From the IMG/VR virus record IMGVR_UViG_2711768004_000013: 45,436 nt of DNA; one strand, 5' to 3'. This DNA comes from a virus (taxonomy: Duplodnaviria; Heunggongvirae; Uroviricota; Caudoviricetes). The notes below the pieces were generated by a model. It saw only the letters and a program-made list of their open reading frames with translations, did not search any database and was not told the origin of the DNA. Of this stretch, positions 1,203 through 45,060 are shown piece by piece. Position 1 is the stretch's first letter. Every line of letters begins with the position of its first letter. A program made the translations under genes and the position numbers.

Positions 1203-1222
1203 TCATAGCTGGTGCTTTTTGA

Positions 1223-1248
1223 AAACCCGCCTTTAGGCGGGTTTTTTC
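1223..1248. terminator. bidirectional rho-independent terminator
   Basis: AAAACCCGCC-TTTA-GGCGGGTTTTTT: GC stem flanked by an A-run and a T-run, placed between the convergent plus-strand module and the minus-strand PrtN-like gene. Confidence 0.6.
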
Positions 1249-9382: not shown

Positions 9383-9768
9383 AGCTGATCCTGCCTTTCC
9401 CGCCCAGCGTGAACACGTACTGGCGACACCCCAACAAAGGGGCATTTGCTGGTAAGAGCCTGATAAGCGCGGCGGGGCGAAAATTTCAGAGCGCGGCGTG
9501 CGCAGCAATAGTTGAGCAGTTACGTCGTCTGCCAAAACCAACGTCGGCACCTGCTTCAGTGGAGATCGTGTTGTTTCCTCCGGATAACCGGATCCGCGAT
9601 CTGGACAACTATAACAAGGCGCTGTTTGACGCCCTGACCCACGCGGGGGTGTGGGAAGACGACAGCCAGGTGAAAAGAATGCTGGTGGAGTGGGGACCGG
9701 TTATCCAGAAAGGGAAGGTCGAGATCACTATCAGTAAGTATGAGAAACCGGCGGGTGCAGCCGCCTGA
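9379..9768 (+). CDS. rusA: RusA-type Holliday junction resolvase
   Basis: 129 aa; LPFPPSVNTYWRH and DLDNYNKALFDALT motifs characteristic of RusA. Confidence 0.85.
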   Translation: MKLILPFPPSVNTYWRHPNKGAFAGKSLISAAGRKFQSAACAAIVEQLRRLPKPTSAPASVEIVLFPPDNRIRDLDNYNKALFDALTHAGVWEDDSQVKRMLVEWGPVIQKGKVEITISKYEKPAGAAA

Positions 9769-9787
9769 TCAAGAGGAGAAACGAAGT

Positions 9788-10597
9788 ATGAATAATCTGA
9801 TGGTCATTGATGGTATTGAAGTTCGTCGTGATGCTTATGGGCGTTACAGCCTGAACGATCTGCACAGGGCAGCCGGGGGAGAACAAAAAAACCGCCCGAA
9901 ATACTGGCTCTCCAATAAGCAAACCTGTGAATTGATTGAACAACTTTTCACCGAGGGTGGAATTCCGCCTCTGGAACAAAATCAACCAGTTAGCGTCATT
10001 AATGGCGGAAATAACCAGGGGACGTATGTCTGCAAAGAACTGGTGTATGCCTATGCAATGTGGATCAGCCCGTCATTCCATCTGAAGGTGATCCGTACTT
10101 TCGACATGGTAACCAGCGCACCGGAAAAATTATCCGGACAGGCTGCTGACAAGATGCAGGCTGGCGTGATCCTGCTGGACTTTATGCGCCGGGAATTAAA
10201 TCTGTCTAACTCATCAGTGCTTGGAGCCTGTCAGAAGCTTCAGGAGGCTGTTGGCTTACCGAATCTGGCACCGCGCTATGCCATTGATGCTCCTGCTGAC
10301 GCGCCTGATGGCTCAAGTCGCCCCACGCTGTCGCTGAGTGCACTGCTGAAGCAGTATGGTATCCGCCTGACGGCTAATCAGGCATATCACCAGATGGTGA
10401 AGCTGGGGATCGTTGAACAACGCGAACGATACAGCCGTACCGCGATTAACAACATCAAAAAATTCTGGTCGCTGACGGCGAAAGGCTGCATGTTCGGCAA
10501 GAACATCACCAGTCCTGCAAATCCGCGCGAGACGCAGCCGCATTTCTTCGAATCCCGATTCCCTGAGCTGTTAAAGCTGCTCGATACCGTTCATTGA
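9788..10597 (+). CDS. KilA-N domain protein (putative antirepressor)
   Basis: N-terminal MNNLMVIDGIEVRRDAYGRYSLNDLHRAAG fits the KilA-N domain; GAGGAG upstream. Confidence 0.6.
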   Translation: MNNLMVIDGIEVRRDAYGRYSLNDLHRAAGGEQKNRPKYWLSNKQTCELIEQLFTEGGIPPLEQNQPVSVINGGNNQGTYVCKELVYAYAMWISPSFHLKVIRTFDMVTSAPEKLSGQAADKMQAGVILLDFMRRELNLSNSSVLGACQKLQEAVGLPNLAPRYAIDAPADAPDGSSRPTLSLSALLKQYGIRLTANQAYHQMVKLGIVEQRERYSRTAINNIKKFWSLTAKGCMFGKNITSPANPRETQPHFFESRFPELLKLLDTVH

Positions 10598-10598
10598 G

Positions 10599-11594
10599 GT
10601 GACCGTGAGAGCACTACTGACCCCTGAAATTGCCCCGCGTATGGGGATCGTATTGTTCAGGCCAGGTTCAGAGCTGATGCCCCTGTTTATGCAGGGGCGT
10701 GTTCTGCTGGAGCCTGAGCCGGAACGTTATTCATCTTTCGCCAGTGGTGCCGTTCCGGCGGCATCACAACCGCTGGCGGATGATCCTGCCGTTCGGGCCG
10801 TGTTCCGCAATGAGGCAGTGATCCGTCGTGCTGGTGGCGTGGAATGTCTTGAAAGCTGGTTACTTCGTGAAAAAGGCTGCCAGTGGCCTCATTCCGACTG
10901 GCACAGCGAGAACATGACCACAATGCGACACGCTCCGGGCGCAATCCGTCTGTGCTGGCACTGCGATAACCAGCTGCGCGATCAGTTCACGGAACGGCTG
11001 GAATCAATGGCAACGGATAACTGTGCCCGCTGGGTGTTGTCTGTTGTGCGTCGGGATCTCGGTTTTGATGATAGTCACGTTGTGACAATGCCGGAACTGT
11101 GCTGGTGGCTGATTCGTAATGACCTGGCGGATGCCTTACCGGAAAGTGCAGCCCGTAAGGCACTGAGATTACCAAAGCCTGTTGTGCCGTCTGTCACCCG
11201 GGAAAGTGACCTTGTGCCTTCGGTTCCTGCCACCAGCATCATCCAGGATAAGGCAAAAAAGGTGCTGGCGCTGAAAGTGGATCCGGAGTCGCCGGAGTCT
11301 TTTATGTTACGCCCAAAACGCCGCCGCTGGGTTAATGAAAAGTACACGCGCTGGGTTAAGACACAGCCGTGTGCATGTTGTGGAAAGCCTGCTGATGATC
11401 CCCACCACCTGATAGGCCACGGTCAGGGTGGAATGGGTACAAAAGCGCATGACCTCTTTGTGTTGCCTTTGTGCAGAAAGCATCACGACGAGCTGCATGC
11501 GGATACCGTGGCATTTGAAGAGAAGTATGGCTCCCAGCTGGAGCTGATATTTCGTTTTATCGATCGTGCGCTGGCAATTGGCGTATTGGCGTAA
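10599..11594 (+). CDS. DUF968-like protein with HNH-like Cys/His C-terminus (GTG start; alternatives at 10605 or 10638)
   Basis: C-terminal CACCGKPADDPHHLIGHGQGG...CRKHHDELH Cys/His cluster typical of DUF968/HNH-like prophage proteins. Confidence 0.55.
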   Translation: MTVRALLTPEIAPRMGIVLFRPGSELMPLFMQGRVLLEPEPERYSSFASGAVPAASQPLADDPAVRAVFRNEAVIRRAGGVECLESWLLREKGCQWPHSDWHSENMTTMRHAPGAIRLCWHCDNQLRDQFTERLESMATDNCARWVLSVVRRDLGFDDSHVVTMPELCWWLIRNDLADALPESAARKALRLPKPVVPSVTRESDLVPSVPATSIIQDKAKKVLALKVDPESPESFMLRPKRRRWVNEKYTRWVKTQPCACCGKPADDPHHLIGHGQGGMGTKAHDLFVLPLCRKHHDELHADTVAFEEKYGSQLELIFRFIDRALAIGVLA

Positions 11595-11607: not shown

Positions 11608-12360
11608 ATGAACCTTGAAGCCTTACCAAAATATTACTCCCCAAAATCTCCAAAATTGAGCGATGACGCACCGGCGACAGGCTCAGGTGGTTTAACGATT
11701 ACGGATGTGATGGCTGCGCAGGGGATGGTGCAGTCGAAAGCACCGCTTGGGTTTGCCTTATTCCTGGCAAAAGTTGGTGTTCAGGATCCTCAATTTGCGA
11801 TTGAAGGTCTGCTCAATTACGCGATGGCACTGGATAACCCGACATTGAACAAATTGAGTGAAGAAACCCGGTTACAGATCATCCCTTACCTTGTGAATTT
11901 TGCCTTTGCTGATTATTCCAGGTCTGCGGCAAGTAAGGCTCGCTGTGAGCATTGTGCTGGTACTGGATTTCATAATGTATTGCGCGAAGTGGTGAAACAC
12001 TCCAGAAGCGGGGAATCTGTTATCAAGGAAGAGTGGGTGAAGGAACTATGTCAGCATTGCCATGGTAAGGGAGAAGTCAGCACAGCGTGCAGAGGGTGTA
12101 AGGGTAAAGGTATTGTCCTGGATGAAAAAAGAACCCGGCTTCATGGTGTGCCTGTTTATAAGATTTGTGGGCGTTGCAATGGCAACCGGTTTAGCCGTTT
12201 ACCAACCACACTGGCGCGGCATCATGTCCAGAAACTGGTACCGGACCTGACGGATTATCAGTGGTACAAAGGATATGCAGACGTTATTAATAAACTGGTT
12301 ACAAAGTGCTGGCAGGAAGAAGCGTATGCTGAATCGCAATTGAGAAAAGTGACAAGATAG
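11608..12360 (+). CDS. late-gene antiterminator Q-like protein
   Basis: 250 aa with a CxxC...CxxC zinc-finger-like cluster; positioned directly upstream of a strong promoter plus terminator (PR-prime / tR-prime arrangement). Confidence 0.7.
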   Translation: MNLEALPKYYSPKSPKLSDDAPATGSGGLTITDVMAAQGMVQSKAPLGFALFLAKVGVQDPQFAIEGLLNYAMALDNPTLNKLSEETRLQIIPYLVNFAFADYSRSAASKARCEHCAGTGFHNVLREVVKHSRSGESVIKEEWVKELCQHCHGKGEVSTACRGCKGKGIVLDEKRTRLHGVPVYKICGRCNGNRFSRLPTTLARHHVQKLVPDLTDYQWYKGYADVINKLVTKCWQEEAYAESQLRKVTR

Positions 12361-12391
12361 ATAATTTTCGCCGAAGATGTCGACGTGATAC

Positions 12392-12420
12392 TTGCATTTT
12401 TCAAAAAATATGGATAAGAT
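12392..12420 (+). promoter_or_regulatory. putative late promoter PR-prime
   Basis: TTGCAT, 17 nt, TAAGAT immediately downstream of the Q-like gene and upstream of an intrinsic terminator. Confidence 0.4.
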
Positions 12421-12464
12421 TTTCTCAACGATGGGCCTTGTATGTCTACCGTTGGTAAATGTCA

Positions 12465-12490
12465 AAAACCCGCCGCTGAGCGGGTTTTTT
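12465..12490 (+). terminator. tR-prime-like intrinsic terminator
   Basis: AAAACCCGCCGCTGAGCGGGTTTTTT. Confidence 0.6.
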
Positions 12491-12639
12491 GTGCCTGATG
12501 TCTCATGAAACTATGAAATGGATTGGTGCGTTAAACATTTTTTCTTATTATCTTTTAGATTTTGGAGAGATGGTTAACGTCTGTATTCCAGAAACTCGAT
12601 GGTTATTTAATAAATTAGTTTCAATGATGCTTCTAGGTT

Positions 12640-13065
12640 ATGACTGTAATGAAAAAGGTATTAATAGCAGCGATAGGTTTTTGTTTAGTTGGTTGTGCAG
12701 GTATGAAATTACCTGAGTATTCGCAAGTTAAAGCAAGTCCGTATTATACAGATTGCCGTGCGTTTGCCATGGATGTTTATAAAAATGATGGATACAGCAA
12801 AATTGCGAAAACTACTATCCTTAGCATGGATGATGTGAAAGCTAGATATATTGTGACAGGGTGTGTAGTTGCTATGGGGAAAAACACTGTAGAGGAAATC
12901 AAAGCTGATCTCTCTGCTAAAGGGAGTTCTTTTGGGCTTATCAGTGGAGCTTGTTCTAGTGCGGCATGTCGGGTTGATGTAGAGCAGCAAATGAACGCTT
13001 ATGTACTTGGTAGTTATTATGCTGCAAATAAAAAATTCCCGGATAAAATGAAAGCAGAGTTTTAA
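12640..13065 (+). CDS. lipoprotein (moron), function unknown
   Basis: Signal peptide with LVGC lipobox; AT-rich island bracketed by two near-identical terminators. Confidence 0.55.
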   Translation: MTVMKKVLIAAIGFCLVGCAGMKLPEYSQVKASPYYTDCRAFAMDVYKNDGYSKIAKTTILSMDDVKARYIVTGCVVAMGKNTVEEIKADLSAKGSSFGLISGACSSAACRVDVEQQMNAYVLGSYYAANKKFPDKMKAEF

Positions 13066-13140
13066 GCAAACCTTGTTTTCGATTATATGTCGAAGATAAA
13101 TGTTAGTAACGGCATAATAAGTAAATATATAGCTGTGATA

Positions 13141-13166
13141 GCAACCCGCCACTGAGCGGGTTTTTT
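13141..13166 (+). terminator. intrinsic terminator, near-duplicate of tR-prime
   Basis: AACCCGCCACTGAGCGGGTTTTTT; differs from the 12465-12490 copy at one loop position. Confidence 0.6.
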
Positions 13167-13264
13167 GTACCCGTAAACTTGGTGCAGTACAGTAAACACG
13201 CTGGTGGTCGTGAATACTGACTTTTTATCTTGCTGGCTTTTTAGACAAGAGTTATTGGTATGTC

Positions 13265-13492
13265 ATGTTAACCAGAAGGGAAAAAGACATGCTAAAACAG
13301 CAAGATATGACAGAAACCGCCGCCGCAGTCCTTCATTTCTTACCTGCTGACAAGTGGGTAACGCCACGCATGATGACGAGAACTACCGGAGTAAGCGAAG
13401 CCCGGTGCCAGTTAATACTGACTCAGTTAGTTCTGGCGGGTCTGGCGAAGGATAACGGCGGGTACGGGAATAAATTCAGACGCTGCCAGTAA
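13265..13492 (+). CDS. small hypothetical protein (start ambiguous: 13265, 13289 or 13307)
   Basis: 75-aa ORF with no recognisable motif. Confidence 0.35.
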   Translation: MLTRREKDMLKQQDMTETAAAVLHFLPADKWVTPRMMTRTTGVSEARCQLILTQLVLAGLAKDNGGYGNKFRRCQ

Positions 13493-13642: not shown

Positions 13643-14695
13643 ATGAAAAATACTGTAAAAATAAACAGTGTTGATTTAATCAACGCTGATTGCCTGCATT
13701 TTATTCAGTCCCTGCCTGATGATTCCATTGACCTGATTGTTACCGATCCGCCTTACTTCAAGGTGAAACCCAACGGTTGGGACAATCAGTGGAAAGGGGA
13801 CGAAGATTACCTTAAGTGGCTGGACCACTGTCTGGCCCAGTTCTGGCGGGTGTTGAAACCTGCCGGAAGCCTTTACCTGTTCTGTGGGCATCGCCTGGCA
13901 TCTGATATTGAGATCATGATGCGTGAACGTTTCAACGTGCTTAACCATATCATCTGGGCGAAGCCGTCCGGACGTTGGAATGGGTGTAATAAAGAAAGTC
14001 TGCGCGCATATTTTCCTGCCACAGAGCGCGTTCTGTTTGCTGAACATTACCAGGGGCCATATCGCGGCAAAAGTGACGGCTATGCGGCAAAAGAAAGGGA
14101 ACTCAAACAGCACATAATGGCACCGCTGATATCGTATTTCAGGGATGCTCGTGCCGAACTGGGTATAACGGCAAAACAAATTGCCGAAGCCACAGGTAAG
14201 AAAAATATGGTTTCCCACTGGTTTGGTGCCAGTCAGTGGCAGTTGCCGAATGAGGCTGACTATCGGAAGTTACAGGCACTGTTTTCCCGTATAGCGGCAG
14301 AGAAGTTTCAGGAACAACAACTGGAACAACCACACCACCAGCTGGTGGCATCTTATGATTCACTGAATCGTAAATATTCTGAATTGCTGGATGAGTTTAA
14401 ATCTCTCCGGCGCTATTTCTCCGTATCAGTCTCCGTGCCTTATACCGATGTCTGGATGCATAAACCCGTTCAGTTCTACCCGGGGAAACATCCGTGTGAG
14501 AAACCGGCGGATATGCTCAGGCAAATAATCAATGCCAGTAGTCGACCAGGTGATCTGGTTGCTGATTTTTTTATGGGATCCGGTTCCACAATAAAAGCAG
14601 CAATGGCGCTGGGGCGTCGGGCCTTAGGTGTTGAGCTTGAGTCAGAGCGGTTTAATCAGACAGTGAAAGAGATAAACGAGCTGGTGGGGAAATAA
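13643..14695 (+). CDS. DNA methyltransferase (N6/N4 type, DPPY motif; orphan)
   Basis: 350 aa; N-terminal IVTDPPYF catalytic motif and C-terminal [11 protein letters not shown]-binding motif; no nearby endonuclease candidate. Confidence 0.8.
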
Positions 14696-14701
14696 TCTGG
14701 T

Positions 14702-14723
14702 GGCCACGTCAGGTGGCCTTTTT
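14702..14723 (+). terminator. intrinsic terminator after the methyltransferase
   Basis: GGCCAC-GTCAG-GTGGCC followed by TTTTT. Confidence 0.55.
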
Positions 14724-14914: not shown

Positions 14915-15323
14915 NNNNNNNNNNNNNNNNNNNNNNNNNNNNNNNNNNNNNNNNNNNNNNNNNNNNNNNNNNNNNNNNNNNNNNNNNNNNNNNNNNNNNN
15001 NNNNNNNNNNNNNNNNNNNNNNNNNNNNNNNNNNNNNNNNNNNNNNNNNNNNNNNNNNNNNNNNNNNNNNNNNNNNNNNNNNNNNNNNNNNNNNNNNNNN
15101 NNNNNNNNNNNNNNNNNNNNNNNNNNNNNNNNNNNNNNNNNNNNNNNNNNNNNNNNNNNNNNNNNNNNNNNNNNNNNNNNNNNNNNNNNNNNNNNNNNNN
15201 NNNNNNNNNNNNNNNNNNNNNNNNNNNNNNNNNNNNNNNNNNNNNNNNNNNNNNNNNNNNNNNNNNNNNNNNNNNNNNNNNNNNNNNNNNNNNNNNNNNN
15301 NNNNNNNNNNNNNNNNNNNNNNN
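14915..15323. other. assembly gap (N-run)
   Basis: 409 consecutive N. Confidence 0.95.
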
Positions 15324-32122: not shown

Positions 32123-35100
32123 ATGGGTAAAGGCAGCAGTAAGGGGCATACCCCGCGCGAAGCAAAGGACAACCTGAAGTCCACGCAGTTGCTGAGTGTG
32201 ATCGATACCATCAGCGAAGGGCCGGTTGAAGGTCCGGTGGATGGATTAAAAAGCGTGCTGCTGAACAGTACACCGGTGCTGGACAGTGAGGGGAATACCA
32301 ACATCTCTGGTGTCACGGTGGTGTTCCGGGCAGGTGAGCAGGAACAGACACCGCCGGAGGGATTTGAATCATCAGGTTCCGAGACGGTACTGGGTACGGA
32401 AGTGAAATACGACACGCCGATCACCCGGACCATCACGTCGGCAAACATTGACCGTCTGCGCTTTACCTTCGGTGTGCAGGCACTGGTGGAAACCACCTCA
32501 AAGGGGGACAGGAATCCGTCGGAAGTCCGCCTGCTGGTTCAGATACAACGTAATGGTGGCTGGGTGACGGAAAAAGACATCACCATTAAGGGCAAAACCA
32601 CCTCGCAGTATCTGGCCTCGGTGGTGGTGGGTAACCTGCCGCCGCGCCCGTTCAATATACGGATGCGCAGGATGACGCCGGACAGCACCACAGACCAGCT
32701 GCAGAACAAAACGCTCTGGTCGTCATACACCGAAATCATCGATGTGAAACAGTGCTACCCGAACACGGCACTGGTCGGCGTGCAGGTGGATTCGGAGCAG
32801 TTCGGCAGCCAGCAGGTGAGCCGTAATTATCATCTGCGCGGGCGCATTCTGCAGGTGCCGTCGAGCTATAACCCGCAGACGCGGCAATACAGCGGTATCT
32901 GGGACGGAACGTTTAAGCCAGCATACAGCAACAACATGGCCTGGTGTCTGTGGGATATGCTGACCCATCCGCGCTACGGCATGGGGAAACGTCTTGGTGC
33001 GGCGGATGTGGACAAATGGGCGCTGTANNNNNNNNNNNNNNNNNNNNNNNNNNNNNNNNNNNNNNNNNNNNNNNNNNNNNNNNNNNNNNNNNNNNNNNNN
33101 NNNNNNNNNNNNNNNNNNNNNNNNNNNNNNNNNNNNNNNNNNNNNNNNNNNNNNNNNNNNNNNNNNNNNNNNNNNNNNNNNNNNNNNNNNNNNNNNNNNN
33201 NNNNNNNNNNNNNNNNNNNNNNNNNNNNNNNNNNNNNNNNNNNNNNNNNNNNNNNNNNNNNNNNNNNNNNNNNNNNNNNNNNNNNNNNNNNNNNNNNNNN
33301 NNNNNNNNNNNNNNNNNNNNNNNNNNNNNNNNNNNNNNNNNNNNNNNNNNNNNNNNNNNNNNNNNNNNNNNNNNNNNNNNNNNCATTGCCCGTTACGGTC
33401 GTAACGTCACGAAGATGGATGCTTTTGGCTGTACCAGCCGGGGGCAGGCACACCGCGCCGGGCTGTGGCTGATTAAAACAGAACTGCTGGAAACGCAGAC
33501 CGTGGACTTCAGCGTGGGTGCCGAAGGGCTTCGCCATGTACCGGGCGATGTCATTGAAATCTGCGATGATGACTATGCCGGTATCCGCACCGGCGGGCGC
33601 GTGCTGGCGGTAAACAGCCAGACCCGGACGCTGACGCTCGACCGTGAAATCACGCTGCCATCTTCCGGCACCACGCTGATAAGCCTGGTTGACGGGCAGG
33701 GGAGTCCGGTCAGCGTGGAGGTTCAGTCCGTCACCGACGGCGTGAAGGTGAAAGTGAGCCGTGTTCCTGACGGCGTTGCTGAATACAGCGTATGGGGGCT
33801 GAAGCTGCCGACGCTGCGCCAGCGCCTGTTCCGCTGCGTGAGTATCCGTGAGAACGACGACGGCACGTATGCCATCACTGCCGTGCAGCATGTACCGGAA
33901 AAAGAGGCCATCGTGGATAACGGGGCGCACTTTGACGGCGACCAGAGCGGCACGGTAAATGGTGTCACGCCGCCAGCGGTGCAGCACCTGACCGCAGAAG
34001 TCACCGCAGACAGCGGGGAATACCAGGTGCTGGCCCGCTGGGACACGCCGAAGGTGGTGAAGGGCGTGAGCTTCCTGCTTCGCCTGACCGTGGCAGCGGA
34101 TGACGGCCGTGAGCGGCTGGTCAGCACGGCCCGGACGACGGAAACCACTTACCGCTTCACACAACTGGCTCTGGGGAACTACAGGCTGACAGTCCGGGCA
34201 GTAAATGCGTGGGGGCAGCAGGGCGATCCGGCGTCGGTATCGTTCCGGATTGCCGCACCGGCAGCGCCGTCGCGGATTGAGCTGACGCCGGGCTATTTTC
34301 AGATAACCGCCACGCCGCATCTTGCGGTTTATGACCCGACGGTACAGTTTGAGTTCTGGTTCTCGGAAAAACGGATTGCGGATATCAGGCAGGTTGAAAC
34401 CACAGCCCGCTACCTTGGCACGGGGCTGTACTGGATAGCCGCCAGTATCAATATTAAGCCGGGCCATGATTATTACTTTTATATCCGCAGTGTGAACACC
34501 GTCGGCAAATCAGCATTCGTGGAGGCTGTCGGTCGGGCGAGCGATGATGCGGAAGGTTACCTGGATTTTTTCAAAGGCCAGATAACCGAATCCCATCTCG
34601 GCCAGGAGCTGCTGGAAAAAGTCGACCTGACGGAGGATAACGCCAGCAGACTGGAGGAGTTTTCGAAAGAGTGGAAGGACGCCAACGATAAGTGGAATGC
34701 CATGTGGGGCGTCAAAATTGAGCAGACCAAAGACGGCAAACATTATGTCGCGGGTATTGGCCTCAGCATGGAGGACACGGAGGAAGGCAAACTGAGCCAG
34801 TTTCTGGTTGCCGCTAACCGTATCGCGTTTATTGACCCGGCAAACGGGAATGAAACGCCGATGTTTGTGGCGCAGGGCAACCAGATATTCATGAATGACG
34901 TGTTCCTGAAACGCCTGACGGCTCCCACCATTACCAGCGGTGGAAATCCGCCGGCATTTTCCCTGACACCAGACGGAAAGCTGACCGCTAAAAATGCGGA
35001 TATCAGCGGTAATGTGAATGCAAATTCAGGGACGCTCAACAATGTCACGATTAACCAGAACTGTACGATTAAGGGCATGCTGGAGGCGACCCAGGTCAGA

Positions 35101-35602: not shown

Positions 35603-36202
35603 ATGCGTAAAGTTTGTGCAGCAATTTTGTCCGCAGCCATTTGTCTGGCCGTATCCGGTGCGCCTGCATGGGCGTCTGAACATCAGTCCACGCTGAGCGC
35701 GGGGTATCTTCATGCCTCGACGAACGTCCCCGGCAGTGATGATCTGAACGGGATTAACGTGAAATACCGTTATGAGTTTACGGACACACTGGGGCTGGTG
35801 ACGTCATTCAGCTATGCAGGAGACAAGAATCGCCAGCTGACCCGTTACAGCGATACCCGCTGGCATGAAGATTCCGTTCGTAACCGCTGGTTCAGCGTAA
35901 TGGCGGGGCCGTCTGTGCGCGTGAATGAATGGTTCAGCGCGTATGCGATGGCGGGTGTGGCTTACAGCCGTGTGTCGACTTTCTCCGGGGATTATCTTCG
36001 CGTAACTGACAACAAGGGGAAAACGCACGATGTGCTGACCGGAAGTGATGACGGTCGCCACAGCAACACGTCTCTGGCGTGGGGAGCTGGCGTGCAGTTT
36101 AACCCGACCGAATCCGTGGCCATTGATATTGCTTATGAAGGCTCCGGCAGTGGCGACTGGCGCACTGACGGTTTCATCGTGGGTGTCGGTTATAAATTCT
36201 GA
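35603..36202 (+). CDS. lom: Lom-like outer membrane beta-barrel protein (Ail/Lom/PagC family)
   Basis: 199 aa with signal peptide and alternating beta-strand pattern ending ...GVGYKF; located between J and stf as lambda lom is. Confidence 0.8.
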   Translation: MRKVCAAILSAAICLAVSGAPAWASEHQSTLSAGYLHASTNVPGSDDLNGINVKYRYEFTDTLGLVTSFSYAGDKNRQLTRYSDTRWHEDSVRNRWFSVMAGPSVRVNEWFSAYAMAGVAYSRVSTFSGDYLRVTDNKGKTHDVLTGSDDGRHSNTSLAWGAGVQFNPTESVAIDIAYEGSGSGDWRTDGFIVGVGYKF

Positions 36203-40320: not shown

Positions 40321-40390
40321 NNNNNNNNNNNNNNNNNNNNNNNNNNNNNNNNNNNNNNNNNNNNNNNNNNNNNNNNNNNNNNNNNNNNNN
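40321..40390. other. assembly gap (N-run)
   Basis: 70 consecutive N. Confidence 0.95.
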
Positions 40391-40405: not shown

Positions 40406-41776
40406 CTATGATATCCCTGAAATGTCCTCTTCAAGCTCTTTTACTGATTTCGCAATTTTAAATTTAAATTTTCTCTCTATTTCACTATTGCTAAGTTTTT
40501 TTTCATTCTCTTTCCCTATCCACATAGAAACAATTTCTCGTTTCTGAGATATATGTAGATTGTCAAAGTTAGGTATGTATTTAAAAGTCTCCGCTCTACC
40601 CCTGCGGAGTTCATAGAAAGTTTTAATCAAAGACTTTGGTTTTATTTCTGATGAAAGGCCGAATCGGCGGATAAGATTATTGATCGTATGATTAACAGCT
40701 CGAAGTTGAGCTGTTGACGTTATTTGTGAGAAGTACGATACCCATCCCAATCGTTTACCTTCAAACACACATCCCGTAATTCTAAGATTTAGTTTCCACT
40801 GACAATATGCAACAGCTCGTTCTTTATCGCGCTTATTTTTAGCTTGTAGTAGAGCGTGTCTATATGCAGTAAAAATTTTTGCTAAGGATGACTCAAATCT
40901 AAGAATGCTCTCATGTTTTATCAATAATTCTCGATTTTTTATGTGGTAGCCCAAAAAGTTGAAACTTTCATCCAAGCTGCCTACTTTGGATTTTGAGTTC
41001 TCTTCATTTAATGGATGTGGGTTTAAATTTAATGATTGAAGCTTATCAATGATATGAGAAGCTATTTTTGTTGCTTGATATTTTGGTGTTAAAATAAGAA
41101 TGTCATCAACGTATCGCATGTACCATATGTCATGCATTTTATTGATTTCATCATCGAAATTAGATAGTGATATTTCAGCTAAAATGTTTGATATCGCTAA
41201 TCCCTGAGGTACTCCTCTGGTATTATTAGGGATACCTTTGCTTCCTGTGGTTCCACTTACAGTAGGCACGATTAATGATGATGTTATTAACTGTCTAATT
41301 TCTTTTTTTCTAATTTTATTTTTTATTGCATTAATTATCAATTTATGTTCAATTGAAGGATAGAAACTTTTAAGATCTATTTTTGCATATTCAGCATATA
41401 GACTGTTGTTTAATGCTTCTTTCAATGAGTCAATTACTGTATGTGGTAGTTTTAATCTGGACTTAGGATATATTTCCGTAAGGCATTCACAGAGAGCTCT
41501 AAGAGTAATTCTGTCCCTAGCAGTTGGTATGGAAATCTGTCTGGGTGTAGAGTTAGCGCCTTTAGATATTAATTTTTCTTTATATGCTGTAAATTTGTAA
41601 TTGCCAGAATTAACCTTTTCAAAAATGAAAGTGATCTCATTTTTTATTGTCAAATCAAGTTTTGATGGGCGAATCCGATCTATGCCAATCGCTCCTGATT
41701 CTTTGATTTTTTCAGAGTATACTTTTAGAAGATTTTTTTTCGAGAATGACTTTTTAAAAATTCTGCTTGCAGTCAT
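40406..41776 (-). CDS. reverse transcriptase (retron / group-II-like catalytic motifs; probable defence-associated RT)
   Basis: 456 aa from the ATG at 41776 (ORF track extends to a TTG at 41782); motifs in order: GIDRIRP, RQISIPTARDR, IDLKSFYPSI (motif A), GVPQGLAISNILAEI (motif B), YMRYVDDILIL (motif C, YVDD), FNFLGYHI (motif E), RITG in the thumb; AT-rich; overlaps the upstream membrane-protein gene by 23 nt. Confidence 0.8.
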   Translation of the reverse strand: MTASRIFKKSFSKKNLLKVYSEKIKESGAIGIDRIRPSKLDLTIKNEITFIFEKVNSGNYKFTAYKEKLISKGANSTPRQISIPTARDRITLRALCECLTEIYPKSRLKLPHTVIDSLKEALNNSLYAEYAKIDLKSFYPSIEHKLIINAIKNKIRKKEIRQLITSSLIVPTVSGTTGSKGIPNNTRGVPQGLAISNILAEISLSNFDDEINKMHDIWYMRYVDDILILTPKYQATKIASHIIDKLQSLNLNPHPLNEENSKSKVGSLDESFNFLGYHIKNRELLIKHESILRFESSLAKIFTAYRHALLQAKNKRDKERAVAYCQWKLNLRITGCVFEGKRLGWVSYFSQITSTAQLRAVNHTINNLIRRFGLSSEIKPKSLIKTFYELRRGRAETFKYIPNFDNLHISQKREIVSMWIGKENEKKLSNSEIERKFKFKIAKSVKELEEDISGIS

Positions 41777-42305
41777 AGTCAATCCAAAGATATATTAATG
41801 GGAGTATATAAAGTGCGGCAGTAATAAATATTCGAAGTAATATCCATAAAATAACAATTATTTTTTCTTTTTGTGTGGGGATCCTCGTCTTAAGTCCAAC
41901 TTGAGTTACCCTTGAAATTTTATCATCTATGTCACGGTGATTCTCAACCTCATTGAGCAAATTAAAATATTTTTCTTTCTGTTCAAGAGATAACTGTTGA
42001 CTGGTGGTAATGTCAAAATAGAGTCGCTGTAGTGCAATATAATTCCTTCTCATGGCTATTGCTCGACCACGAAAATCTAGGTTAGATACGATCAGAGAAA
42101 TACCCAGTAGAGCCACTGAAAGTATCGCCGCAACGACATCTGTATTATCTCCTAGAACCTTTGGAAATCGCAACGTTACAATTGAAAGTACCGCACTCAA
42201 TATAGCATACCAAACGAGGATAAATTGAGAGTGTTTTTCAAGCCATTCTAGTCGATGGTGCGCTTGGATACGTGCTTTATATGTAAACCAAATATTGTCA
42301 TGCAT
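41754..42305 (-). CDS. small multi-TM membrane protein (2TM / SLATT-like), putative effector of the RT system
   Basis: 183 aa; two adjacent hydrophobic helices near the N-terminus, a predicted helical soluble stretch, and a C-terminal hydrophobic helix; AAGGA 6 nt before the ATG at 42305. Confidence 0.6.
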   Translation of the reverse strand: MHDNIWFTYKARIQAHHRLEWLEKHSQFILVWYAILSAVLSIVTLRFPKVLGDNTDVVAAILSVALLGISLIVSNLDFRGRAIAMRRNYIALQRLYFDITTSQQLSLEQKEKYFNLLNEVENHRDIDDKISRVTQVGLKTRIPTQKEKIIVILWILLRIFITAALYILPLIYLWIDYDCKQNF

Positions 42306-42836: not shown

Positions 42837-43934
42837 TCAAGAGGTCTTATTTCTGCTCCTTTGGAGTTCTTCAAAACGATTATGTAAAGATTTCGGATAC
42901 AGTTCGGTATATACCTGCCATAGCACGTTTAATGAACGATGCCCTGTAACCTGAGCGACTTCCTCAATACTAAAACCAGCCTCAAATAAGCGACTTGCCC
43001 CTTCTCTACGCAAATCATGGTATCTCAGATCTTTAATACCTAATTTGCTTCTTACCCTCTGAAATCCTGCGGTAACAGAAGTGCTGTTATATGGAAAAAT
43101 GAATTCTGATTTTTTGGGTTGTCGCTGGACGATATCCCAGGCTTCCCCAAGCAAGGCAACTTTCATATGGTTGCCTTCCTTTTTACGTGGATCTTTCCTG
43201 TCTCTTACTAGTATAGATTTTTGTTCCTGGTCGAGATCTTCCCATCGTAACCGGCATACTTCTCCGATTCGCATACAGGACCACACAGAAAATTTGAGGA
43301 TATCAACGAACGGAATTTTTGAGCATTTATGAGTAGATCGTTGTTGAAGGCCTTCAATGAGCATGTTCAGTTCATCAGATGCTGGTCTACGATTACGACG
43401 GTTTGATTTACCAATCAAACCGAGTTTAAGTAGATATGGACGAGCGCTTTTCGCCGGGTTTGATGTGTAATTGATTCCGTATACAGGTTTTGCCGCATCC
43501 AGAACACTGCCAAGATAACTAACATCGTGGCTGACTGTTGCTGGGCCTGCACCAGCGTTGTTTCTTAGCCTGCAATGTTCAATTACGTCATTTTCTGTCA
43601 GTTCAGATAGTTTGATCGCGGAGATGTCACTATCCATAAGCAGTTCCAGCACATATCTTTTAGTACGGCCTGCTTTACCTCCGGCATTTGGGTCATTTAA
43701 ATATTTGTGTAGTAAGTCACGGACTGTAAGTCCGTCAACAGCATTTGATGATGGAATGCCATATAGATCTAATTCCATCACTTTCTGTGCGCCCCATGTT
43801 TTGGCATGAGCATGTTTAGGGAATGTTTTGCTTTCCCTGTAAGTGATAACACCTTTTTCTTTGATAATCACATTACAGCGATAGCGTGGTGTGCCATCGG
43901 ATTTTAGTCGTTTCTCTATGTTATAGTACGCCAT
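42837..43934 (-). CDS. int: tyrosine integrase (dusA-associated type)
   Basis: 365 aa; C-terminal catalytic residues in HDLRREGASRLF, VTGHRS and LWQVYTE; immediately adjacent to dusA. Confidence 0.9.
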   Translation of the reverse strand: MAYYNIEKRLKSDGTPRYRCNVIIKEKGVITYRESKTFPKHAHAKTWGAQKVMELDLYGIPSSNAVDGLTVRDLLHKYLNDPNAGGKAGRTKRYVLELLMDSDISAIKLSELTENDVIEHCRLRNNAGAGPATVSHDVSYLGSVLDAAKPVYGINYTSNPAKSARPYLLKLGLIGKSNRRNRRPASDELNMLIEGLQQRSTHKCSKIPFVDILKFSVWSCMRIGEVCRLRWEDLDQEQKSILVRDRKDPRKKEGNHMKVALLGEAWDIVQRQPKKSEFIFPYNSTSVTAGFQRVRSKLGIKDLRYHDLRREGASRLFEAGFSIEEVAQVTGHRSLNVLWQVYTELYPKSLHNRFEELQRSRNKTS

Positions 43935-44022: not shown

Positions 44023-45060
44023 ATGCACGATAATCCTGAAACACAGAAAACTAATCAAACCAGCGTGATGCCTGAAAAAACTGGCGCTTACTGGAGTTCT
44101 CGGTTTAGCATTGCTCCTATGCTCGACTGGACGGACAGACATTGCCGCTATTTCTTGCGTCTGCTTTCCCGCAATACGTTGCTGTATACCGAAATGGTGA
44201 CCACAGGGGCGATTATTCACGGTAAAGGTGATTACCTGGCGTACAGTGAAGAAGAACATCCGGTAGCGTTGCAACTCGGCGGTAGCGATCCGGCGGCGCT
44301 GGCACAGTGTGCGAAGCTGGCAGAAGCGCGTGGATATGATGAGATCAACCTGAATGTCGGCTGCCCGTCTGACCGGGTGCAGAACGGCATGTTTGGTGCG
44401 TGTCTGATGGGTAATGCGCAGCTGGTTGCCGACTGCGTGAAAGCGATGCGCGATGTGGTGTCGATTCCAGTGACGGTGAAAACGCGTATTGGCATCGATG
44501 ACCAGGACAGCTATGAATTTCTCTGCGATTTCATCAACACCGTTTCCGGCAAAGGCGAGTGTGAGATGTTTATCATCCACGCACGTAAAGCCTGGCTTTC
44601 GGGGTTAAGCCCGAAAGAAAACCGTGAAATCCCGCCACTCGATTATCCGCGTGTGTATCAACTGAAGCGTGACTTTCCGCATCTGACAATGTCGATTAAC
44701 GGTGGTATCAAGTCGCTGGAAGAGGCCAAAGCACACCTGCAACATATGGATGGCGTGATGGTCGGGCGCGAGGCGTATCAGAATCCGGGTATTCTGGCGG
44801 CGGTAGACCGGGAGATCTTTGGTTCCTCGGATACCGATGCCGATCCGGTGGCGGTAGTGCGCGCCATGTATCCGTACATTGAGCGTGAACTCAGCCAGGG
44901 GACGTATCTCGGCCATATTACCCGGCATATGTTGGGCTTGTTCCAGGGTATTCCTGGCGCGCGGCAGTGGCGGCGTTATTTAAGTGAAAATGCCCATAAA
45001 GCGGGTGCAGACATTAATGTGCTGGAACACGCGCTCAAACTGGTGGCGGATAAGCGTTAA
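44023..45060 (+). CDS. dusA: tRNA-dihydrouridine synthase A
   Basis: 345 aa with the conserved ...[16 protein letters not shown]... region and active-site context NLNVGCP; recognisably E. coli DusA. Confidence 0.9.

Follow-up and report, generated by a model that had tools for sequence, protein, structure and literature searches.

The present analysis indicates that an AT-rich segment with a single lipoprotein gene in a lambda-like prophage is probably a moron, an optional and horizontally acquired piece of cargo lodged in a 'cargo bay' between the late control elements (Q, pR' and tR') and the lysis genes. This reading, which we favour as a whole, includes a proposed expression of the gene in the lysogen and the loss of the cassette through the terminator repeats that bracket it. 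The prophage was studied on a stretch of 45,436 nucleotides (the window), in which the 1001 bases compared with E. coli strain A14 (positions 12300-13300) proved 100 % identical. Genes for a KilA-N protein (9740-10597) and a DUF968 protein (10599-11594) are followed by the late antiterminator gene Q of the PF03589 type (11608..12360, + strand; Pfam Antiterm 6.9e-54, phrog_127), to which a RefSeq CDS of A14 maps. Beyond the segment under study come a small conserved late-region ORF (13289..13492, +, phrog_331), a DNA methyltransferase gene (13643..14695, +, PF01555) and, in the gap between methylase and holin, a further terminator-like hairpin (14702..14718, +), which was found by sequence scan and carries a terminator annotation in both Ayreon and SfV. 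The lysis genes come after this hairpin. The optional cassette itself spans 647 bp (12496..13142, +) and is absent from 720R4 and SfV. Its GC content of 35.7 % deviates from that of the flanking Q and methylase genes (47.8-47.9 %) and of the window (50.2 %).

The sequence-only reading of this DNA had described two nearly identical terminators around an AT-rich segment encoding a lipoprotein with an LVGC lipobox, and that description was borne out. The left copy (12465..12490, +, AAAACCCGCCGCTGAGCGGGTTTTTT; repeat unit 12467-12495), which we infer to be the late terminator tR', corresponds to annotated terminators at the equivalent sites of SfV and Ayreon. The right copy (13143..13166, +, AACCCGCCACTGAGCGGGTTTTTT; repeat unit 13143-13171) ends the cassette and heads the orf-methylase-lysis module. 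A loop base, G against A, is the sole difference between AAAACCCGCCGCTGAGCGGGTTTTTT and AACCCGCCACTGAGCGGGTTTTTT. Over the full direct repeat of 29 nt the identity is 27/29 at a spacing of 676 nt, and a search for the 29-nt pattern that allowed up to 3 mismatches hit these two sites only in the 45-kb window, with no match in any of 100 shuffles. Both copies fold into a GC-rich stem of 7-10 bp that closes a 6-nt loop and is followed by a U6 tail (-13.9 and -13.3 kcal/mol), so that at the level of sequence each presents the GC-rich stem-loop directly before a U tract by which Rho-independent terminators are recognised. The terminator scan reported the right copy alone, in our opinion because the stem of the left copy runs on into its own A/T tracts. 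An Rfam search gave sub-threshold matches only, to STnc130, the Trp and Leu leaders and isrK, and these were driven by the terminator hairpins. The match to STnc130, an enterobacterial sRNA, lies antisense over the right terminator and the leader of the ORF that follows (13134-13270, - strand); at 26 bits it falls below the gathering score of 55, and it is probably an effect of the hairpin. A terminator-like hairpin of the same CCCGCC/GGCGGG stem type (AAAACCCGCCTTTAGGCGGGTTTTTT) is also present in the early region at 1222-1247 (+).

That the gene is accessory and sits directly behind pR' and tR', as had been proposed, is supported by comparison with relatives. In the phage collection the filled site is present in mEp460, PhiR47_1, phiSTEC1575-Stx2k (L015), 15 Stx2c-converting phages and Ayreon, for which both terminators were annotated by its authors. 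The phages 720R4 (vB_EcoM-720R4) and SfV share Q, the leader and the downstream genes with the window at 96-98 % identity, have one terminator, and are short of exactly one terminator copy and 652 bp relative to it. In a survey of 5426 complete E. coli genomes the cassette was found at 97.8 % identity or more in 215, in all but one of them (214) with the same flanks, and the empty junction was found in 425. An ancestral and core place of the arrangement in the late operon, the finding that would have gone against the sequence-only reading, did not emerge, as in E. coli about two empty sites were counted for each filled one. The segment is present in some phages and absent from close relatives, its composition deviates from that of the surrounding genes, and a hairpin plus U6 at 13143-13166 gives it, at the sequence level, a terminator of its own downstream. 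It would therefore fit the moron concept on three of the four sequence-level criteria, the promoter being a candidate.

The ORF at 12640-13065 (+) encodes 141 aa and belongs to phrog_4748 (7.5e-91); its start may be the ATG at 12649 (MKKVL). It corresponds to RefSeq WP_000217632.1, a 'hypothetical protein', and a literature search found no mention of WP_000217632; among the 10 papers on mEp460 listed out of 63, judged by title, none appears to concern the gene. The N-terminus, MTVMKKVLIAAIGFCLVGC followed by AG, combines an n-region with KK, a hydrophobic stretch and the lipobox LVGC, and the residues MKKVLIAAIGFCLVG followed by C agree with the signal-peptide/lipobox pattern [LVI][ASTVI][GAS]C. 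All 8 aligned homologues share G18 and C19, the lipobox itself reading LVGC, IVGC, MVGC, MAGC or STGC, and four further cysteines (C39, C75, C105 and C110) are invariant as well. Against the homologues dN/dS is 0.08-0.19, and dS to the Salmonella copy is about 1.8. From these values it follows that the + strand ORF is a protein under purifying selection and that its family is old, and the low dN/dS rules out a spurious ORF. The lipoprotein gene of the sequence-only reading, with its own terminator at the end of the cassette, is in this respect real. An antisense ORF of 147 aa (12709-13152, -) overlaps the gene; in view of the AT-rich composition here and of the selection on the + frame, it was judged an artefact. 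In Lol sorting, Asp at position +2 is the signal for retention in the inner membrane. Here +2 is Ala, so that the retention signal is missing and sorting to the outer membrane is predicted. The protein is accordingly predicted, from its sequence, to be a substrate of signal peptidase II that is anchored in the outer membrane, with a mature part of about 120 residues and a predicted fold of an all-helical bundle.

Searches with the lipoprotein found no match in Pfam, NCBIfam or PADLOC, and structure searches of BFVD and PDB gave no significant match. In PHROGs only families of unknown function were hit, phrog_4748 over the full length and phrog_8068 marginally, and a profile search of PDB sequences stayed at chance level, with mitoribosomal uL14 as the top hit (E = 0.011). 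Among 5.8 billion proteins a word-indexed search recovered 9 clusters of the family; when 1.84 billion representatives were searched exhaustively with a profile, 8 proteins came up, all of them fragments or family members. All homologues with a named source or an examined contig are enterobacterial. By these searches phrog_4748 is a tiny enterobacterial family that is always found on mobile elements.

The gene has several other genomic homes. In a Salmonella prophage (L004) it lies between a Q gene of a different type (PF06530/DUF1133) and a holin gene, in the same layout of terminator, gene and terminator. Rac-like prophages have a homologue that adjoins vapBC. A 111-kb plasmid of Buttiauxella and several metagenomic contigs contain further homologues, and the most distant member of the family lies in a transposon-rich island. 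On the Buttiauxella plasmid (L005, 6446-6745) and in the metagenomic contigs (L138, 751-1050) a second lipoprotein of 99 aa (phrog_7666) is encoded 10 nt past the 141-aa gene. This suggests a unit of two lipoprotein genes, of which the E. coli cassette would have kept the first only.

The site, in turn, has other occupants. Lys8385Vzw has the same Q, the same pR' leader and the same tR' position, followed by stx1AB, and 2H10 has the same stretch from Q through the leader to tR', followed by cspF/cspB. In phage cdtI other genes precede the right terminator and the orf-methylase module. PhiR40_1 (L009) has another lipoprotein in the same bay, on the opposite strand (930-1376, -; 148 aa, phrog_3152), between a different short Q with a hairpin of its own and a terminator of the right type. 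BLAST matches of many phages start or stop exactly at the terminators, at window positions of about 12490 and 13143. An exact-pattern scan of IMG/VR for the terminator hairpin returned at least 120 loci, and among the loci listed the identical hairpin was found with three major upstream and two major downstream contexts. Upstream of the orf-methylase module these were the PhiR40-type module (44 instances), the 3' end of the cassette (35) and the Q-leader, that is, the empty site (27); the Q-leader was joined to the 5' end of the cassette in 26 instances, and 13 showed other combinations of flanks. Since the same terminator joins several upstream and downstream modules, it can be regarded as a mosaic junction.

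The two copies do not vary alike. Among the IMG/VR loci listed the right copy (A in the loop, T6, GTACC) is invariant in 35 of 35 filled sites and likewise unchanged in the 44 sites with a different upstream module; it resembles the single terminator of the 720R4 type. The left copy is variable, with A or G in the loop, T6 or T7, and GTGCC; SfV has a single terminator similar to it. The cassette is bracketed in Salmonella too, where the left hairpin is the same and the right hairpin has the same stem with another loop (ATTGC or ATCGC). The stem and T tract of this right hairpin are intact although the gene has reached a dS of about 1.8, and the downstream context switches directly past the hairpin between two contigs. 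The retention of stem and T tract despite the change of the loop suggests that the structure of the right terminator is under selection.

How the cassette came to the site, and how it leaves, can be judged in part from one empty locus. The two flanks of L026, each compared with the window over 300 nt, show 100 % and 99.7 % identity. The one terminator between them reads as the left copy through GTGCC (loop G) and as the right copy from CCCGTAAAC on (flank CGTAAAC...), with the crossover placed in the last two bases of the repeat. Such an exact chimera of left and right shows that the cassette can be lost precisely by way of the repeats. By its sequence L026 is a clear deletion product, and it is the sole clear case among the empty sites. 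The sequence-only reading had proposed an insertion with duplication of the terminator. The accessory cassette stands, as described above, and the duplication is one possibility only, because the repeat is too long for a transposase target duplication, the terminator is shared by modules, the unit is old and L026 is a product of deletion. The age of the unit of terminator, gene and terminator follows from its being common to the Salmonella prophage at a dS of about 1.8, and the low GC and promiscuous contexts of the gene mark it as foreign to the site. The first event may have been either an insertion that duplicated tR' or the joining of two modules that each had a homologous terminator.

Two other histories have to be weighed against this. 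A transposase, an integrase or an integron-like system could have inserted the gene, the repeat being a target-site duplication, and a direct repeat that flanks the insert exactly is what such an event would leave. But the repeat, at 29 nt or more, is far longer than typical target duplications and is a functional-looking terminator common to many modules; the only pair of inverted repeats (15 nt, AT-rich) is internal, with none at the ends of the cassette; and no transposase, integrase or other recombinase gene was found in or beside it. Insertion by a transposon or integron was rejected on these grounds and appears very improbable. Alternatively, the series of terminator, lipoprotein gene and terminator could be the ancestral state, with nothing ever inserted at tR' and all empty phages arising by secondary deletion through the repeats. 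The layout in the Salmonella prophage, which is followed by a remnant of the methylase, would agree with this at the divergence of the gene just given, as would the exact chimera in L026 with its matching flanks and the occurrence of the same leader variants in the filled and empty states. It is difficult to reconcile, however, with a cassette of 36 % GC between flanks of 48-50 %, with the unrelated cargo in the bay of sibling phages and with a protein family found in unrelated mobile contexts. Empty sites are, moreover, about twice as numerous as filled ones and are also found in SfV-type phages whose sequence past the terminator is distinct. For these reasons an ancestral arrangement appears quite unlikely to us, and acquisition of a foreign cassette is preferred.

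The location of the cassette has consequences for its control. In lambda, pR' has AACGAT at +1..+6 followed by GGG, a discriminator-like element that forms the sigma70-dependent pause at which Q is loaded (PMC4005639). In the window a -35 element TTGCAT (12392-12397) and a -10 element TAAGAT (12415-12420), separated by a 17-nt spacer, were read from the sequence as the putative pR' (+). The stretch AACGATGGG (12427-12435, +), which begins six bases past TAAGAT, is identical to the initial transcribed element of lambda pR' (PMC4005639) and is invariant in an alignment of the window with Ayreon, 720R4 and SfV. Because AACGATGGG matches AACGAT and GGG of lambda, the predicted transcription start was placed at about 12427, with the predicted sigma70-dependent pause element in the same stretch. 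With this start the left terminator, about 40 nt downstream, would be tR', and a short RNA of about 63 nt is predicted in the lysogen. The predicted constitutive pR'-tR' RNA (12427-12490, +) would consist of a 5' hairpin and the terminator (-20.3 kcal/mol, z = -1.9). In lambda and the Stx phages pR' is constitutive and is stopped at tR' in lysogens, giving short transcripts (PMC7547250). The RNA predicted here would correspond to the 6S RNA of lambda and to StxS, the Hfq-binding sRNA of Stx phages.

A promoter inside the cassette is the weakest link in the mechanism proposed below. A consensus promoter scan from 12491 to 12640 gave no site that reached the threshold. Below it lies a candidate sigma70 promoter, TTGGTG-17-TATTAT (12523..12551, +), with 8/12 positions of the consensus. 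The aligned site of the Salmonella contigs L004/L143 reads TTGGTA-18-TATCAT and has 9/12, so that the candidate would be a conserved one. We propose that in the lysogen the constitutive transcript from pR' would stop at the left copy, and that the lipoprotein gene would be read from its own weak sigma70 promoter inside the cassette. The right copy would halt this transcript ahead of the genes for holin and endolysin. Once the prophage is induced, RNA polymerase modified by Q would ignore both terminators, and the lipoprotein would be the first late product. The terminator repeats serve in addition as substrates of recombination, a crossover between the copies deleting the cassette precisely.

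It could be possible, instead, that the gene has no promoter of its own and that the lipoprotein is made only upon antitermination by Q, when it would head the products of the late operon. In that case it would act during or after lysis, for instance by masking the receptor on debris and so sparing progeny, and the right terminator would be a mere head of the downstream module or a back-up of tR'. The outcome of the promoter scan would agree with this, and the E. coli cassette is always in the pR' transcript, given the same flanks in 214 of 215 genomes. In the Salmonella prophage L004, too, the gene is directly upstream of the holin gene, and the 44 cassette-free loci with an unchanged right terminator, among the IMG/VR loci listed, are consistent with a terminator that belongs to the downstream module. 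The right terminator could indeed persist in either capacity, as module head or as back-up, in the absence of an internal promoter. What speaks against late-only expression is that the pair of -35- and -10-like elements is conserved in position in a homologue as divergent as that of Salmonella, and that the right terminator there keeps its stem and T tract though loop and surroundings have changed. The gene is also found outside late operons, beside VapBC genes in Rac-like prophages, on a plasmid and in a transposon island, where it would require expression signals of its own. Exclusive late expression is for these reasons regarded as unlikely, though it is the alternative to which we give the most room, and expression in the lysogen from within the cassette is retained as the preferred reading.

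Morons were defined by Juhala and Hendrix in the lambdoid phages HK97 and HK022, with lambda bor and lom and HK97 gene 15 as examples (PMC3594210; see also PMC8065619). As in those cases, the cassette is extra DNA with respect to relatives, is low in GC, holds a single gene between transcription signals and encodes an envelope protein. It differs in that its terminator is a near-copy of the phage's own tR' and not an unrelated hairpin, and in that its promoter is only a candidate. A classical moron of the lom/Ail outer-membrane type is present in the tail-fibre region of the same prophage (35603-36202, +; Pfam Ail_Lom 1.5e-122). The location behind Q, pR' and tR' is shared with the stx cargo (PMC8065619, PMC7547250). 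For stx1, Q-dependent read-through is combined with an own, Fur-regulated promoter (PMC7547250), and expression of the cassette would by inference be dual in a similar way. Unlike in the Stx phages, the cargo is a small lipoprotein and not a toxin, and the distance from pR' to tR' would be about 63 nt as against 258 nt for StxS. Short conserved 'linker' sequences at the joints of exchangeable modules are known from lambdoid mosaic boundaries (cf. PMC9836094), and the terminator resembles them in this role; unlike them it is a hairpin that is present twice and hence supports precise loss of the cargo.

The function of the lipoprotein can be approached by class only. With Cor (phi80/N15/HK022), Llp (T5), Bor (lambda) and TraT it has in common that it is a small secreted lipoprotein, accessory cargo and predicted to reach the outer membrane. 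It differs in that there is no detectable relationship in sequence or fold to these four or to other known exclusion or defence proteins. By analogy with this class, and not by homology, its most likely role would be lysogenic conversion of the envelope. The superinfection exclusion or envelope modification that the sequence-only reading had suggested remains a class-level guess.

In the Stx2c and Stx2k phages the cassette is upstream of stx2 in the same transcript. In the Stx2c phage PV98-693 (L142, 6075-10814) the order is Q, terminator, lipoprotein gene, terminator, orf, methylase and stx2cAB. Two tandem terminators of the tR' type with the cassette are in this way placed between pR' and the toxin genes in Stx2c phages. 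The lipoprotein gene is the first gene of a late transcript that also bears stx2c or stx2k, and as the cassette heads this transcript its product and the terminators sit in a clinically relevant control region. The cassette is carried by about 4 % of complete E. coli genomes. The variable nature of the region from Q to the lysis genes, home of the stx genes, is known already. What is specific here is the use of a near-copy of tR' as the terminator of a cassette, its sharing as a recombination joint, and a lipoprotein cargo that is uncharacterised. The pair of terminators offers a concrete picture of how cargo behind a late promoter may be silenced, insulated from the lysis genes, exchanged and lost. 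Current concepts are unchanged by it; one uncharacterised lipoprotein family and one clean case of repeat-mediated loss of cargo are added, and the cassette, though a good case of moron cargo in a phage, is an ordinary one.

A bolder proposal, which we consider doubtful, is that the paired late terminators form a dedicated site of cassette exchange, about 30 nt of homology sufficing for phage recombinases, and that phrog_4748 is at the same time a new, structurally unrelated family of outer-membrane lipoproteins that mask a phage receptor or protect the lysogen in another way. If this were true, phages could swap, gain or drop cargo such as stx1, csp genes and lipoproteins at this site with late-gene control undisturbed, and the protected lysogens would include those of Stx2c phages in E. 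coli O157.

It should be noted here that three runs of N (14915-15323, 33028-33383 and 40321-40390; 835 bases in total) mask parts of the holin/YdfR region, of the tail-tip gene region and of the stretch before a reverse transcriptase gene, and that ORFs listed across them are artefacts. The reverse transcriptase (RVT_1, 458 aa) is paired with a SLATT_5 effector with two transmembrane segments at the end of the prophage (40406-42305, -), and the pair is adjoined by the integrase gene (42837-43934, -) and host dus (44023-45060, +). The pair is probably cargo for an RT-based defence against phages.
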